Below, piece by piece: positions 3,700-49,350 of a DNA stretch of 64,000 nucleotides. The notes under the pieces are model-generated. The model saw nothing but the letters and a program-made list of their open reading frames with translations. It was not told the DNA's origin and made no database searches. The position numbers and the translations under genes were made by a program. Each line of letters starts with the position of its first letter. Positions within the stretch are counted from its first letter, which is position 1. This stretch comes from Escherichia phage vB_EcoM_JS09: sequence record NC_024124.2. One strand, 5' to 3'.

Positions 3700-4692
3700 A
3701 TGTTACCTGTCATCAGAAAACTTATTTCTCCAAAAGAACTGGCTGAGATTATTCCTTTGTCGGAAGCTTACGCATCACAAGTGGCTTCTCATCGCGAACA
3801 AGTTAATTCGATTATGAACGGTGAAGACCCACGCAAACTTATTGTTGTAGGTCCTTGTTCAATTCATGACCCTATTGCTGCTGTTGAATACGGCAAACGT
3901 CTGGCTGAACTTCAAACTCGTCTTCCTAATGTTCTGTTAGTGATGCGCGTTTATTTTGAAAAGCCTCGAACTACCGTAGGTTGGAAAGGTCTTGTAAATG
4001 ATCCATATCTTGACGGAAGTTTTGATATGAACCACGGTCTTATAGTTGCACGAACATTGTGTCGTAAACTTCTACGTATAGGACTTCCATTAGCAACTGA
4101 AGTATTAGACCCATTCACGATTAAGTATCTTTCTGGTATTTTCTCATGGGTTGCTATTGGCGCCCGTACGACTGAAAGTCAGACACATCGTGAAATTGCT
4201 TCAGGTCTACCGATGTGCGTAGGCTTCAAGAACGCAACCAATGGTTCTATTAAAGTAGCTACAGACGCGATGTATAGTGCCGCCTGGCCTCATCGGTATA
4301 TGGGTATGGACGTCGATGGTACTGTAGGCATTGTTGAAGCTGAAGGTAATCAGAATACGCATATCGTATTGCGTGGCGGGACCAACGGCCCGAACTATCA
4401 TTCTTCTGATATTCAAGAAGCTTCTAACAAAGCAAGGGCAGTAGGTCTGAATCATTATGTAATGGTTGACTGTAGCCATGCAAACGCTGATGGACATTAT
4501 AGCAATCAAATTGGTATTGGTAAAAATTTAGCAGCTAATGATTTGGTCAAAGGAATTATGATAGAATCATTCCTACATGAAGGAAATCAAAAAATTTCCG
4601 ATAATATGTCCTATGGCGTTTCCGTTACCGATGCGTGCATCAGTTGGGAACAAACTAAAGAGCTGTTAACTTATATTAATAAGGTTCAATAA
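3700..4692 (+). CDS. 3-deoxy-D-arabino-heptulosonate-7-phosphate (DAHP) synthase, class I (AroG/AroF/AroH-like)
   Basis: 330 aa; full-length colinearity with E. coli AroG as recalled: VVGPCSIHD, MRVYFEKPRTTVGWKGL, GARTTESQTHRE, GFKN, DCSHAN, ESFLHEGNQ, TDACISWE; stop overlaps cd start. Confidence 0.85.
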   Translation: MLPVIRKLISPKELAEIIPLSEAYASQVASHREQVNSIMNGEDPRKLIVVGPCSIHDPIAAVEYGKRLAELQTRLPNVLLVMRVYFEKPRTTVGWKGLVNDPYLDGSFDMNHGLIVARTLCRKLLRIGLPLATEVLDPFTIKYLSGIFSWVAIGARTTESQTHREIASGLPMCVGFKNATNGSIKVATDAMYSAAWPHRYMGMDVDGTVGIVEAEGNQNTHIVLRGGTNGPNYHSSDIQEASNKARAVGLNHYVMVDCSHANADGHYSNQIGIGKNLAANDLVKGIMIESFLHEGNQKISDNMSYGVSVTDACISWEQTKELLTYINKVQ

Positions 4693-6781: not shown

Positions 6782-6803
6782 GGGAGACTTCGGTCTCCCT
6801 TTT
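6782..6803 (+). terminator. rho-independent terminator, C(UUCG)G hairpin
   Basis: GGGAGAC-TTCG-GTCTCCC followed by TTTT. Confidence 0.75.
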
Positions 6804-27160: not shown

Positions 27161-27880
27161 ATGTTTAAGAAATACAGCAGTCTTGAAAACCACTACAACT
27201 CTAAGTTTATTGAAAAACTCTACACTAATGGTTTGACTACCGGTGTTTGGGTAGCACGTGAGAAAATCCATGGGACCAACTTCTCGTTAATAATTGAACG
27301 TGACAACGTCACATGCGCCAAGCGCACAGGCCCTATTCTTCCAGCAGAAGATTTTTATGGTTATGAAATCGTACTCAAGAAGTATGATAAAGCTATTAAA
27401 GCCGTTCAGGAATTCATGTACACAGCTCGAGCCGTATCATATCAAGTATTCGGTGAATTCGCTGGTGGTGGAATCCAGAAAGGTGTTGACTACGGTGAAA
27501 AAGATTTTTACGTGTTCGATATCCTTATCAATACAGAAAGTGGTGATAATACATATTTGACCGATTACGAAATGCAAGATTTCTGTAATGAATTCGGTTT
27601 TAAAATGGCACCAATGCTCGGTCGTGGAACATTCGATGCTCTTATCACGATTCCAAACGACCTTGATTCTGTCTTAGCCGCTTATAATGCTACTGCGTCA
27701 GAAGATCTTGTAGAAGCAAATAATTGTGTATTTGACGCTAATGTTATTGGTGATAATACTGCCGAAGGTTATGTTCTGAAGCCTTGTTTCCCTAAATGGC
27801 TGCCAAACGGTACTCGTGTAGCTATTAAGTGCAAGAACTCTAAATTCAGTGAAAAGAAAAAGTCTGATAAAGCCTATTAA
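27161..27880 (+). pseudogene. rnlB: RNA ligase 2 (Rnl2), N-terminal fragment ended by frameshift
   Basis: 239 aa; near-identical to T4 Rnl2 N-terminus with KIHGTN motif; frame ends ...[10 protein letters not shown] where T4 continues PIKAK. Confidence 0.85.
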
Positions 27881-28160
27881 AACTCAGGTTCCATTAACCG
27901 AAATTGACAAAAACTTGCTTGATGTTCTAGCTTGTTATGTTACATTAAATCGTGTTAATAATGTGATTTCTAAGATTGGGACTGTAACGCCAAAAGATTT
28001 TGGCAAAGTGATGGGATTGACTGTTCAAGATATTCTGGAAGAAACTTCTCGTGAAGGTATTGTATTAACAACATCTGATAATCCGAATCTTGTTAAGAAA
28101 GAATTAGTCCGAATGGTGCAAGATGTTCTGCGTCCTGCATGGATTGAATTAGTATCATAA
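27849..28160 (+). pseudogene. rnlB: RNA ligase 2 (Rnl2), C-terminal fragment in the +1 frame
   Basis: Frame continues [16 protein letters not shown]...RPAWIELVS, matching T4 Rnl2 C-terminus; no ATG, ORF track starts on GTG. Confidence 0.8.
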
Positions 28161-28162
28161 CG

Positions 28163-28192
28163 AAAAAAGGGACCTTACGGTCCCTTTTTTTT
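28163..28192. terminator. bidirectional rho-independent terminator
   Basis: AAAAAA-GGGACC-TTAC-GGTCCC-TTTTTTTT between convergent rnlB and gene 24. Confidence 0.8.
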
Positions 28193-29474
28193 ATTCATCA
28201 ATGATAATTTTTGGTAGCTTAACACCGAGTAAAACAGACAAGTCTGAACGTCCTGCCATTTTATCCATGTCCCCGCCATCAATTATTCTCGCTTCTTTTT
28301 CATCTTTTGCTACTGTGTAAGGATTTGCTGATAAGGCATATCTAACCAATAATCCGATAGACGGTTGCAAGCTTTCTGGATCAACTACAACTTTAAAAGC
28401 ACCGACATGTTCCGGGTCATCTAAATCTACTCCTTCAGTGTATGGAGCATAAAAGATGGACCCTACAATTTCTTTTTCGCCGATATTTTCTACAACACCT
28501 ACAATAACATAATCTAACGGACTGTTGGTATCGCAGTAAAGAGGTAATCCATTTGCCAAGAATCCATAAGCATTTTGTGAAAGATACTTGTCATCTTCTG
28601 GCTTATGTTTTAACCAACCGGAAGCAGCAAGAATAGCAGCCGCACGAGCTGAGGCTACACAAAACGTTGCAGTATAAGTCGTCTCTTTTTGAATGTGCGA
28701 TACCATTTCACACACCATTCGATATAATGAACGACCTGCTTCTGGAGCGGATGCATAGCTCAAGTCAATAAATCCGGTATCGGTAATTCCAGTAACTTTA
28801 TAACGTTTCGATACAGTAATTAAAGACTGAAGAATATCTTTATTAATTTCATCAGCCATTTCAGTAGCAAGCAAATCTTCTAAGAAGTTAGGGGCATCAA
28901 ATCCATTCGCTTCCAAATCTTGCGCTAATTCGACCGTGAGGCCAGTTTTAAGTTTACGTGATTTGACTGAAGTTTGCCATTTATTAATCTGGAATCTTGC
29001 ATCAGAAATTTCGCTATCGGAGCTTTCAAATTTGCTTGTTACCGCTGCATCTGAAAATAACCGTACCTTTAAATGAACGACTGCAATCTGAAGAGCTAGT
29101 TCTAGATCACTTTCTTGAATATCTGCAAATGGTGTATCTTCTAACACTTTATAGACGATATTATTATATTTGAAAAAATCACCTTTATTTAGTGTGACTT
29201 TTGATTCTTCTGTTAGCTCAGTAATTTTTTCTCGGTCTACATATCCAACTTCACCCGCATAAGTAGCGCCAGTTTTAAATGTGAATTCGTTATCTGGGTT
29301 AAGATATTTGATACCATAAAAAGCAGCAACAGGTTGATTAGTTCTTTGTGTTGCTACAATGTCAGAATATATTAATTTAGTCGTAGCGCGAGTCAAAGCA
29401 ACGAGATTTGGGCGACCAATTGAGTTGCTAGTAGACGTTGTAGATTCACGCAATAATTTTTGGATTTTACTCAT
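28191..29474 (-). CDS. 24: head vertex protein
   Basis: 427 aa; near-identical to T4 gp24 as recalled. Confidence 0.95.
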   Translation of the reverse strand: MSKIQKLLRESTTSTSNSIGRPNLVALTRATTKLIYSDIVATQRTNQPVAAFYGIKYLNPDNEFTFKTGATYAGEVGYVDREKITELTEESKVTLNKGDFFKYNNIVYKVLEDTPFADIQESDLELALQIAVVHLKVRLFSDAAVTSKFESSDSEISDARFQINKWQTSVKSRKLKTGLTVELAQDLEANGFDAPNFLEDLLATEMADEINKDILQSLITVSKRYKVTGITDTGFIDLSYASAPEAGRSLYRMVCEMVSHIQKETTYTATFCVASARAAAILAASGWLKHKPEDDKYLSQNAYGFLANGLPLYCDTNSPLDYVIVGVVENIGEKEIVGSIFYAPYTEGVDLDDPEHVGAFKVVVDPESLQPSIGLLVRYALSANPYTVAKDEKEARIIDGGDMDKMAGRSDLSVLLGVKLPKIIIDE

Positions 29475-29501: not shown

Positions 29502-29509
29502 TATTTATA
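29502..29509 (-). promoter_or_regulatory. late promoter TATAAATA (minus strand) for gene 24
   Basis: TATTTATA on + strand 28 nt upstream of gene 24 start. Confidence 0.65.
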
Positions 29510-29515
29510 AAGATT

Positions 29516-29545
29516 GTTTACAACGTATTTGGTATGTGATACTAT
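29516..29545 (+). promoter_or_regulatory. T4-type early promoter
   Basis: GTTTAC 29516-29521, TACTAT 29540-29545; AGAGGAG RBS then ATG 29576. Confidence 0.55.
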
Positions 29546-29575
29546 AGACTTATCAACTACAGAGGAGTAAACAAA

Positions 29576-29845
29576 ATGACTAAAGCACGTTTCTTACGAG
29601 ATACTTTAAAAGTTCTAGAAGCTGAAGCAGTTAAGTTAGTAGAAAAATATGGTGCAAAAGTTAATGGTAATGCCTTCAACAAAGTATGGATGAAAGTTGA
29701 TTCTGAAGCTCGAGCTAAAGGTTATTGGGCCACTGATAAACTTGCATCATTCAAAAACAAAGACGGTTCTCTAGCATATGTCCAAGAAGGTATGCCTAAT
29801 TGGCAAAATATTTTGAAAACTTACATCGAAATTGCACAGAAATAA
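29576..29845 (+). CDS. hypothetical protein, + strand ORF between genes 24 and 23
   Basis: 89 aa ORF with own early promoter and strong RBS, converging on gene 23 terminator. Confidence 0.6.
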   Translation: MTKARFLRDTLKVLEAEAVKLVEKYGAKVNGNAFNKVWMKVDSEARAKGYWATDKLASFKNKDGSLAYVQEGMPNWQNILKTYIEIAQK

Positions 29846-29873
29846 AACCAAAAATGGGAGACCGAAGTCTCCC
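29846..29873 (-). terminator. rho-independent terminator after gene 23, C(UUCG)G hairpin
   Basis: Minus-strand transcript: GGGAGAC-UUCG-GUCUCCC then AUUUUUGGUUUU. Confidence 0.75.
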
Positions 29874-29897
29874 AAAATAAGATTTAATCAATTAAGA

Positions 29898-31466
29898 TTA
29901 GATGCCTTTTACATATACACGGCGGAAGTAAGCGTTCTTACCAAGGCTGTTCAGGATAGACGGCATACCGGACTGGATGCGAGCACCTGGAGCCTGCAGG
30001 GAACTTTCAGCAAACGGGTTAACACCGATACCGTAACGAGTTTTAAAGCCCATTACCGGCTGGAAGTTCTTAGGATCGGAACCACGCAGTGGGGTAAGTG
30101 CAACGTAAGGAGCATAGTAAATACCTGCATCCATTTCGTTAGCGCCTTTGTAACCAACGGTGAAGTAATCCTGTTTAGCATACTGGTCGATGTATACGCG
30201 GTATTTACCACCAAGTACACCGGCAAATACGGACTTAGTAGTGTCGGTATTAAAACCAGAAGCCAGACCCTGTGCAGCATAAGAAATACCAGTATCAACT
30301 GAAGCCAGTACGTTAACTACGTTACGGGAAGCGATAATGAAGTTACCTTCACCACGACCGGTTTGACGAGCAATTTCAACTGCTTCTTTATCAATCTGGA
30401 ACAACAGAGATTTAAAGCTTTCACCGGCCCAACGAGCACCACGGATATCAATCGGGTCCTGGAAGTCAAATACACCAGCTTTAGAACCCGGAGTCAGGGT
30501 CATACCAGATTTACCAACCTGTGCTGAGTAGTTAATCCAATCAACAACTTCACGGTTGATTTCTAGCATAATTTCTGTAGCCAGAATACCGCTCAGTTCA
30601 GCATCAGCATCCATACCGTGTACTGCACGGAGGTCTTGTGCTAATTCGATAGAGTAAGCAGCTTTCAGCTGGCGAGATTTAGCTTCAATAACTTGTTTAT
30701 CGATACGGAAGCCCATTTCATTCCATGGGTTATCGGTAGAACCGTTGAAACCTTCCTGGAGTTCAGCGATAGAAGTAGCCATACCTTCAGCGATTTCTAC
30801 CAGTGCACCAGCTTCCATTTGTTTCTTAACTTCTGCATCTAATTTAGCTGCATCAGTTGCACCAGAATCAAGTGTTACGATAGCAGAAGCTTGCAGATAT
30901 ACAGTACCAGTTTCTTGGAAGAAGTGAGTATAGATATCACCTACAACAGTAGTAGTGTCAGCAGCCAGAGCTGGGAATTTCTTAGCAGCACCCTGACCAG
31001 AGAACATCGCGTCTGGGGCATACATCGGATGGAAAGCTTCTTTAGCGCCAGCAGCGATAGGGTCTTTACCATATACTGCACGGAGAGCAAATACCTGACC
31101 GGTCGGGCTGTTCATAGGCTGAACACCACAAATATCAAAAGCGATCAGATTAGGAATAGCACGACGAACCATACCCATAACTGCCGGCCCAATTTGGGTT
31201 ACTGCACCAGAGGTTTGACCTGCTGCGATGTTCTGAGCATTATAACCATGGTCACCACCAATTTCAGCTTCGGTCAAGAAAGAACCAAATGCCTGAGCGA
31301 TTTTCTCGTCTTTATATTCAGGGGATACTTCGAAATCTTTTTCCTGGTTTTCGAAGATTTTAGCGATAATAGCCTGCTTGCTATTAGCGATTTCCGGCAG
31401 GCCTTCACCTTCCAGCAGTTCTTTCCATTTGTCTACGAGCTGAGCTTTAGTTTTGATAGTAGTCAT
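29898..31466 (-). CDS. 23: major capsid protein
   Basis: 522 aa; near-identical to T4 gp23 as recalled. Confidence 0.97.
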   Translation of the reverse strand: MTTIKTKAQLVDKWKELLEGEGLPEIANSKQAIIAKIFENQEKDFEVSPEYKDEKIAQAFGSFLTEAEIGGDHGYNAQNIAAGQTSGAVTQIGPAVMGMVRRAIPNLIAFDICGVQPMNSPTGQVFALRAVYGKDPIAAGAKEAFHPMYAPDAMFSGQGAAKKFPALAADTTTVVGDIYTHFFQETGTVYLQASAIVTLDSGATDAAKLDAEVKKQMEAGALVEIAEGMATSIAELQEGFNGSTDNPWNEMGFRIDKQVIEAKSRQLKAAYSIELAQDLRAVHGMDADAELSGILATEIMLEINREVVDWINYSAQVGKSGMTLTPGSKAGVFDFQDPIDIRGARWAGESFKSLLFQIDKEAVEIARQTGRGEGNFIIASRNVVNVLASVDTGISYAAQGLASGFNTDTTKSVFAGVLGGKYRVYIDQYAKQDYFTVGYKGANEMDAGIYYAPYVALTPLRGSDPKNFQPVMGFKTRYGIGVNPFAESSLQAPGARIQSGMPSILNSLGKNAYFRRVYVKGI

Positions 31467-49321: not shown

Positions 49322-49350
49322 GATACAAAAATGGGAGCCCGAAGGCTCCC
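49322..49350 (-). terminator. rho-independent terminator after gene 8, C(UUCG)G hairpin
   Basis: Minus transcript: GGGAGCC-UUCG-GGCUCCC then AUUUUUGUAU. Confidence 0.75.

Follow-up and report, generated by a model that had tools for sequence, protein, structure and literature searches.

A small accessory gene behind an early-type promoter between capsid genes 23 and 24 of Mosigvirus and related T4-like phages

Described occupants of the 23–24 gap and comparable genes

In phage T4, the gap between capsid genes 23 and 24 holds segD, a free-standing GIY-YIG homing endonuclease gene on the strand opposite to both neighbours. According to a 2010 review, no promoter specific to segD could be identified, and its authors' guess was that transcripts of the gene are extremely scarce (PMC2988022). 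Time-resolved omics of T4 class segD as "early-RNA, middle-Protein" and detect the SegD protein from the first minutes (PMC9697503 supplements). Other phages fill the slot in other ways: KP15 carries a SegD-like gene on the same strand as genes 23 and 24, and GEC-3S has three tiny same-strand ORFs. In RB51 (Tequatrovirus), S16, Roth68 and Morttis, the gap is 80–120 bp long, with the terminator of gene 23 and the late promoter of gene 24 as its sole elements.

The slot described here comes from Escherichia phage vB_EcoM_JS09 (NC_024124.2), of which one stretch of 64,000 nucleotides, hereafter the window, was analysed. The genome is that of a Mosigvirus (RB69/HX01-like), and its gap contains a plus-strand, ATG-initiated ORF for an 89-aa protein at positions 29576–29845. 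T4 segD occupies this slot too, flanked by the terminator of gene 23 and the late promoter of gene 24, has the same antisense orientation and follows a homologous sigma-70 site that likewise abuts the late-promoter box. The products are unrelated; the 89-aa protein has neither a GIY-YIG motif nor a nuclease signature. A preliminary description of the window named no T4 gene at this position, and was mistaken in that respect. No endonuclease ORF was found in the window's own 23–24 gap, and an Rfam scan of the gap returned nothing near any gathering score.

T-even phages encode small early proteins of host takeover and counter-defence, among them AsiA, Arn, Dmd and Acb2/Vs.4, which range from 60 to 100 amino acids. 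With these, the 89-aa ORF shares its size, early signals, dispensability, rapid divergence and lack of an enzymatic motif, but its product resembles none of them in sequence or fold. Arn and Ocr are DNA mimics; the 89-aa protein is basic, so it is not a mimic of that kind.

The arrangement also recalls morons and the 'novel ORFs' of T4-like phages (PMC1524935), which are single accessory genes with their own promoter and terminator and a patchy distribution, as is this ORF. Nolan et al. found that 13 of 57 predicted RB69 early promoters lie upstream of novel ORFs, this one included (PMC1524935). Like a lambdoid moron, the ORF stands with its own promoter and a terminator between conserved genes, in a slot that is empty in RB51, S16, Roth68 and Morttis. 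It differs from lambdoid morons in that its base composition matches the phage, with a GC content of 34.4% against 38.1% for the window and 37.5% for the gp24 gene, and a GC3 of 0.22 against 0.25 for the latter. Unlike most T4-like novel ORFs, it lies alone inside a late structural block and points against its neighbours.

Signals in the gap and the timing of expression

Gene 24, which encodes the capsid vertex protein (427-aa ORF, 28191–29474, minus strand), forms the left flank of the slot and is so annotated in all matching Mosigvirus records. The right flank is gene 23, which encodes the major capsid protein (522-aa ORF, 29898–31466, minus strand), is likewise annotated in relatives and is convergent with the 89-aa ORF. 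The T4-type late promoter of gene 24, TATAAATA, is an exact match on the minus strand at 29502–29509, 27 nt before the gene 24 ATG; this sequence occurs 18 times in the window against 7.9 expected. A plus-strand promoter of the sigma-70/T4-early type follows at 29516–29545, with GTTTAC at 29516–29521, TG at 29537–29538 and TACTAT at 29540–29545. Its spacer is 17–18 nt, and the promoter scanner reads the −35 element as TTTACA (29517–29522) with a spacer of 17. The Shine–Dalgarno sequence AGAGGAG, read directly at 29561–29567, lies 8 nt ahead of the ORF's ATG.

Between the ORF and gene 23 lies a GC-rich hairpin, GGGAGAC-CGAA-GTCTCCC (29855–29874), which folds with −13.5 kcal/mol on the plus strand and −16.8 kcal/mol on the minus strand (z about −4.7 on each). 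On the minus strand it has a UUCG loop and a U-tract at 29844–29854, and is the intrinsic terminator of gene 23. No U-tract was found 3′ of the hairpin on the plus strand, where AAAAUAAG stands instead, so the hairpin is a canonical terminator for gene 23 only. The ORF transcript thus lacks the hairpin followed by a U-tract that marks an intrinsic terminator; the equivalent element in VR7 is bidirectional. As a separate observation, the hairpin (GGGAGACCGAAGTCTCCC) is almost exactly repeated at about 6782–6799 and 49326–49350, which explains a second match per genome in DNA searches.

The cassette of promoter and ORF fits exactly between the T-run of the gene 23 terminator and the late promoter of gene 24. 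The preliminary description had already placed both capsid genes and the gene 23 terminator on the minus strand, recognised the gene 24 late promoter, and credited the plus-strand ORF with its own early promoter and a strong ribosome-binding site; all of this is borne out.

A generic sigma-70 scan of 1.4 kb around the ORF gave 3 matches against 3.9 expected, and a lone promoter-like match in AT-rich DNA carries little weight by itself. The more specific motif GTTTAC-N16–18-TANNAT occurs eight times in the 64-kb window, always on the plus strand (1159, 3285, 6837, 7280, 14182, 26672, 29516 and 62065), against a chance expectation of 1.12, and none of 100 shuffles reaches eight. All eight sites have in common an extended −10 element of the GTGaTACTAT type. 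With this excess over chance, the restriction to one strand and the shared element, the sites form a genuine class of promoters, of which the one at 29516 is typical. Taken together, the eight sites offer a ready map of the window's early transcription units.

The promoter is also conserved between lineages. In an alignment of upstream regions from six ORF-bearing lineages and T4 segD (seven lineages in all), the late box is invariant, and a GTTTAC-like −35, a spacer of variable length and a TG-extended −10 stand in register. Both hexamers and their position are kept in RB69, JS98, VR7, two metagenomic phages and upstream of T4 segD, and the Shine–Dalgarno sequence is kept as GAGGAG or GGAG in other ORF lineages. 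The T4 segD site (about 107253–107281 in NC_000866; 5254–5282, minus strand, in the extracted T4 locus) reads TTTACA-17-TATTAT with TG, a match at 10 of 12 positions, and the same scanner found equivalent sites in JS98 and VR7. Judged from these alignments, the early promoter belongs to the slot rather than to its cargo, which may be the ORF, the ORF with segD, or segD alone.

The ORF is probably expressed early, as suggested by its promoter class and by the early RNA of T4 segD, whose promoter is homologous. The segD RNA, the one experimental result that bears on this promoter and one obtained in another phage, supports early expression of the ORF indirectly, and could partly derive from read-through of the rnlB operon rather than from the homologous promoter. 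In the window, rnlB (RNA ligase 2; 27161–28160) is itself split into ORFs of 239 and 103 amino acids by a 1-bp insertion at about 27869 (GATAAAG against GATAAG in SA79RD). The gene is intact, at 999 bp, in HX01, ATK47 and RB69, and the split is either a real inactivation or a sequencing error.

The ORF family, its protein and its evolution

The window ORF matches PHROG 6003, a family of unknown function, over its full length (E 7.2e-45; residues 1–89 against profile positions 1–90 of 90). Members of this family in the slot include HX01 D299_gp293, JS09_0270, SA79RD_184, JS98 orf173, VR7ORF190c and the pair RB69ORF188c and 189c, and the Mosigvirus copies are the same gene in the same position and orientation, with no difference. 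Proteins identical at 100% are present in public records. A segment of 551 bp around the ORF is 100% identical in HX01, DCP548 and others, and at least 99% identical in many Mosigvirus genomes. The matching Mosigvirus records label the ORF "hypothetical protein", and every public source calls it hypothetical or uncharacterized. JGI names the metagenomic 90-aa member P0006 (4001–4273 in its extracted locus) 'NADPH-dependent curcumin reductase CurA', plainly a misannotation.

Neither the ORF nor its signals are therefore new: the ORF is annotated in about 238 phage records, and the signals were predicted for RB69 in 2006. In their RB69 supplements, Nolan et al. list Pe:109605 (score 29.9) as an early promoter, Pl:109573 as a late promoter and "23-><-RB69ORF188c" as a terminator (PMC1524935). 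In the record of phage SA79RD, both the early and the late promoter of the slot are annotated, together with the terminators. Literature searches by locus tag and accession returned no papers on the 89-aa ORF. An early-protein screen of the Mosigvirus AV110 picked its genes by homology to T4, which places this ORF outside its set, and none of the phages used for CRISPRi-ART (T4, T5, SUSP1 and PTXU04) is known as a carrier of the family.

A tblastn search found the ORF in 238 phage records, with 119 at at least 80% identity (Mosig-type) and 119 below 60%. Divergent copies occupy the same place, on the strand opposite to genes 23 and 24, in JS98 (Dhakavirus) and VR7 (Gaprivervirus), and these Dhaka/Gapriver alleles are only 31–38% identical to the Mosig-type ORF. 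Two metagenomic T4-like contigs have the ORF in this arrangement as well, with 33% and 60% identity to the window protein. Gene 24, on the left flank, is present as a tandem pair (24a/24b) in S16 and in the lineages of Dhakavirus and Gaprivervirus, as seen in JS98, VR7 and two metagenomic phages, and is single-copy in the window and in T4.

Beyond the T4-like phages, the sole sequenced carrier is ABPH49 (Vequintavirinae-type). In three metagenomic relatives (rV5-like), the ORF lies in long same-strand arrays of small ORFs without Pfam matches, where T7 0.6-like and similar early-type genes adjoin it; such an array is typical of an early or accessory block. The array neighbours are all of unknown function and gave no functional clue. 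An IMG/VR scan returned only T4-like genomes of roughly 155–172 kb, and an exhaustive profile search of 1.84 billion representative proteins gave only nine matches. Three of the nine were set aside: P0025 and P0026 are long proteins whose matches are artefacts of summation over repeats, and P0023 has the look of a chimeric fragment. To judge from these searches, the family is small and confined to phages. The window holds no paralog of the 89-aa protein.

The preliminary description had read the ORF as an inserted cargo gene. The empty gap of RB51, S16, Roth68 and Morttis, together with exchange between lineages, supports the notion of cargo; a recent foreign or genome-specific gain is not supported, because the ORF is syntenic in three genera, has a phage-typical composition and occurs in about 238 records. 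Of the checks suggested there, the protein search produced the PHROG 6003 family and no relative of known function, and the comparison of 23–24 intervals placed the ORF in Mosigvirus, Dhakavirus and Gaprivervirus but not in T4, where segD fills the slot.

An AlphaFold2 model of the 89-aa protein has a pLDDT of 94.1 and a pTM of 0.80. It consists of helices at residues 3–25, 31–48 and 76–88, with a β-hairpin (52–60/66–70) between the second and third. The same fold is predicted for the 30%-identical ABPH49-type member (TM 0.88). Across an alignment of 17 members, whose lengths are conserved at 84–93 aa, residues M1, K3, F6, N30-G31-N32, N35, A45 and Q70 are invariant and many Lys and Arg residues are conserved. 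The residues N30-G31-N32, N35 and Q70 could be helix-capping residues rather than a binding site. Family members have pI values of 8.0–9.9 (9.2–9.9 in 16 of the 17; about 9.6 for the window protein), and are hydrophilic, almost cysteine-free and without a transmembrane segment; the window protein is predicted to be soluble.

Searches with the window protein gave no lead to a function. Pfam returned only DUF4859 (E 0.003, below its cut-off), with no GIY-YIG or nuclease signature, and NCBIfam and PADLOC returned no match. Sequence and profile searches of the PDB gave chance-level hits only (the RFC1 BRCT domain at E 0.06 and de novo three-helix designs). A fold search of the PDB found no chain beyond generic helical bundles, and the BFVD yielded only a member of the protein's own family. 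Across Pfam, NCBIfam, PADLOC, the PDB and the BFVD, no characterised host-takeover or anti-defence protein resembled it in sequence or fold.

The 89-aa protein is under purifying selection. Nei–Gojobori dN/dS is 0.04 for ABPH49 against P0014, 0.10 for JS98 against VR7 and 0.15 for the window against the P0006 contig, and lies between 0.19 and 0.27 for the other unsaturated pairs. On these ratios and the conserved fold a chance ORF was rejected, and the ORF is almost certainly a real protein-coding accessory gene. Its protein also changes 3–13 times faster than those of the flanking genes: when the window is compared with JS98, the ORF reaches a dN of 0.68, with 0.12 in gp23 and 0.23 in gp24, and JS98 against VR7 gives 0.27, 0.02 and 0.07 in the same order.

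Copies broken by truncation or frameshift were found in RB69, mogra, 310Ecol104PP and some of the metagenomic contigs. The RB69 reference copy is 97% identical in DNA, but owing to a +1 insertion and a −1 deletion it reads as two ORFs, RB69ORF188c and 189c. This split reflects either laboratory-strain decay or old sequencing errors. A cluster of substitutions lies near the first indel of the RB69 copy (NC_004928; 9292–9532 in the extracted locus).

Exchange of the cassette and the role of its product

Several phages combine a backbone of one lineage with an ORF allele of another. The P0006 contig has JS98-like gp23 and gp24 (91% and 94%), yet a Mosig-type ORF that is 61% identical to the window protein and 30% to that of JS98. 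Conversely, the Mosigvirus ATK47 is 98–100% identical to the window in gp24, promoter and gp23, and its ORF allele is Dhaka-type. In ATK47, the ORF stop is followed after 3 nt by a 219-aa ORF and then the terminator, both ORFs being co-oriented behind one promoter. Along its whole length, the 219-aa protein has 58% identity with T4 SegD (E 1e-87), and a SegD ortholog at at least 95% identity is present in about 33 phage records with a Mosigvirus backbone. F2 and LF82-4 have the same arrangement as ATK47, with a Dhaka-type ORF and SegD. F2 (NC_054913) is filed as a Tequatrovirus and looks like a Mosigvirus in the 23–24 region; its gp23 agrees with that of the window in all of the last 150 residues, and, leaving aside the swapped cassette, the 5′ end of its gene 24 and the 3′ region of its gene 23 are close in DNA.

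The left junctions of the exchanged segment differ among ATK47, F2 and LF82-4, the three positions being the SD–ATG interval, a point roughly 10 nt upstream of that, and the beginning of gene 24. All three phages share one right junction, some 36 nt in from the 3′ end of gene 23. Between it and the gene 23 stop codon, eight of the last nine sense codons of the gene (29901–29927, minus strand) are synonymously recoded in the SegD-carrying relatives: ATK47, F2 and LF82-4 differ from the window by eight synonymous changes there, the rest of the gene is 98–100% identical, and the protein is unchanged (3766–3792 in the extracted locus L021; 2921–2947 in L022 and L023). At the same two gene 23 codons, T4 (segD+) and RB51 (segD−) differ as well, with TTT AGA against TTC CGC; S16, which lacks segD, is an exception to this codon pattern.

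The tract at 29901–29927 is a candidate SegD target or immunity determinant. Recoding of this kind beside SegD is what one would expect to see where an endonuclease-resistant target adjoins a homing gene, and would place the ORF within the co-conversion tract. A divergent allele accompanied by SegD in about 33 phages, with varied left junctions, points to repeated exchange of the ORF cassette between lineages, and this exchange is probably driven by homing.

The best overall explanation, with a probability of about one half, is that the locus is an early single-gene unit with a dispensable, host-binding product and that it behaves as an exchangeable module. Host sigma-70 RNA polymerase would most likely start at 29516–29545 early in infection and transcribe away from gene 24, producing a short mRNA with a strong ribosome-binding site that would end at or near the hairpin shared with gene 23. 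The 89-residue basic protein would then bind a host component, either protein or nucleic acid, and serve as a dispensable host-takeover or counter-defence factor, probably neither an enzyme nor a virion part. The conserved promoter on one side, and the terminator with the 3′ tip of gene 23 on the other, would serve as anchors for recombination. A divergent ORF allele would have come in with a downstream segD in about 33 phages of Mosigvirus backbone, and T4 has the promoter and segD without the ORF.

We infer both the action by binding and the role in host interaction. A small, fast-evolving, dispensable protein with an early-type promoter fits the profile of a host-interaction accessory gene, and its assignment as a host-takeover or counter-defence binder is tentative. 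A bolder proposal, and a doubtful one, is that the ORF represents a new early counter-defence or host-hijack family with an unseen fold, specific to T-even-like and rV5-like phages of E. coli. Its Mosig and Dhaka alleles, about 30% identical, would be kept circulating by SegD exchange and would counter different variants of a host target.

The main rival to a host-binding product is a small basic nucleic-acid binder that acts on the phage's own DNA or RNA, as an early regulator of transcription, translation or mRNA stability. The basic charge fits such a regulator just as well, given the pI of 9.2–9.9 in 16 of 17 members, the conserved Lys and Arg and the invariant Asn and Gln residues, and a compact helical domain with a β-hairpin behind an early promoter would suit it. 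Fold searches, however, gave no match to HU/IHF, winged-helix, ribbon-helix-helix or other known nucleic-acid-binding folds, the broken copies in RB69, mogra and others speak against a core regulatory role, and T4 and many other genera manage without the ORF; this reading is accordingly rated unlikely. The remaining alternatives are less likely. One of them ties the ORF to SegD, as a helper or temperer of homing or as a hitch-hiker within the co-conversion tract. The two genes do stand co-oriented, 3 nt apart and behind one promoter in ATK47, F2 and LF82-4, T4 segD follows a homologous promoter, and the ORF allele switches together with segD. Most carriers nevertheless lack segD, among them the 119 Mosig-type records and those of Dhakavirus and Gaprivervirus; in T4, segD stands without the ORF, in rV5-like phages the ORF occurs in unrelated contexts, and a dN/dS well below 1 indicates selection on the protein itself, all of which makes a tie to SegD very improbable.

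Purifying selection on amino acids bears equally on the idea that the transcription unit matters and not the protein, either by insulating gene 24 from gene 23 read-through or by producing an antisense RNA that tunes the late capsid genes. For such a spacer, that selection, a length held at 84–93 aa and a confident fold down to 27–30% identity would be unexpected, and many T4-like phages do well with an empty gap of 80–120 bp. The opposite-strand layout and the promoter are conserved whatever the cargo, and early transcripts may run antisense into gene 23 where the plus strand lacks a U-tract, but a purely transcriptional role is still given only a slim chance. Slimmer again is that of a minor head protein or internal virion protein, suggested by the location between head genes and by a weak PHROG match to the 'internal virion protein' family phrog_8765 (E 0.022, far below significance). 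The ORF runs opposite to the head genes and is preceded by a promoter of the early, not the late, type, and its rV5-like homologs are in early-type arrays, not structural modules. The N-terminus lies within a folded helix, positions of the Leu-x-Glu type are not conserved across the family, and no conserved N-terminal targeting or cleavage motif was found across the 17-member alignment. The virion reading was rejected on the promoter, the orientation and the lack of a conserved targeting motif.

For the most part, the result is a clarification: the ORF and its signals were already in databases and the literature, and the position is occupied in T4. The most useful new points are the slot's conserved early promoter, which is common to T4 segD, and the swapping of ORF alleles in association with SegD. 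One short gap between essential capsid genes holds a conserved, outward-facing early-type promoter with varying cargo, and the locus would offer a compact natural system for homing endonucleases that move neighbouring accessory genes between phage lineages. As a small, fast-evolving and well-folded protein, the product is a sensible candidate for host-interaction screens in phages of Mosigvirus and Dhakavirus, many of which are in therapy development.
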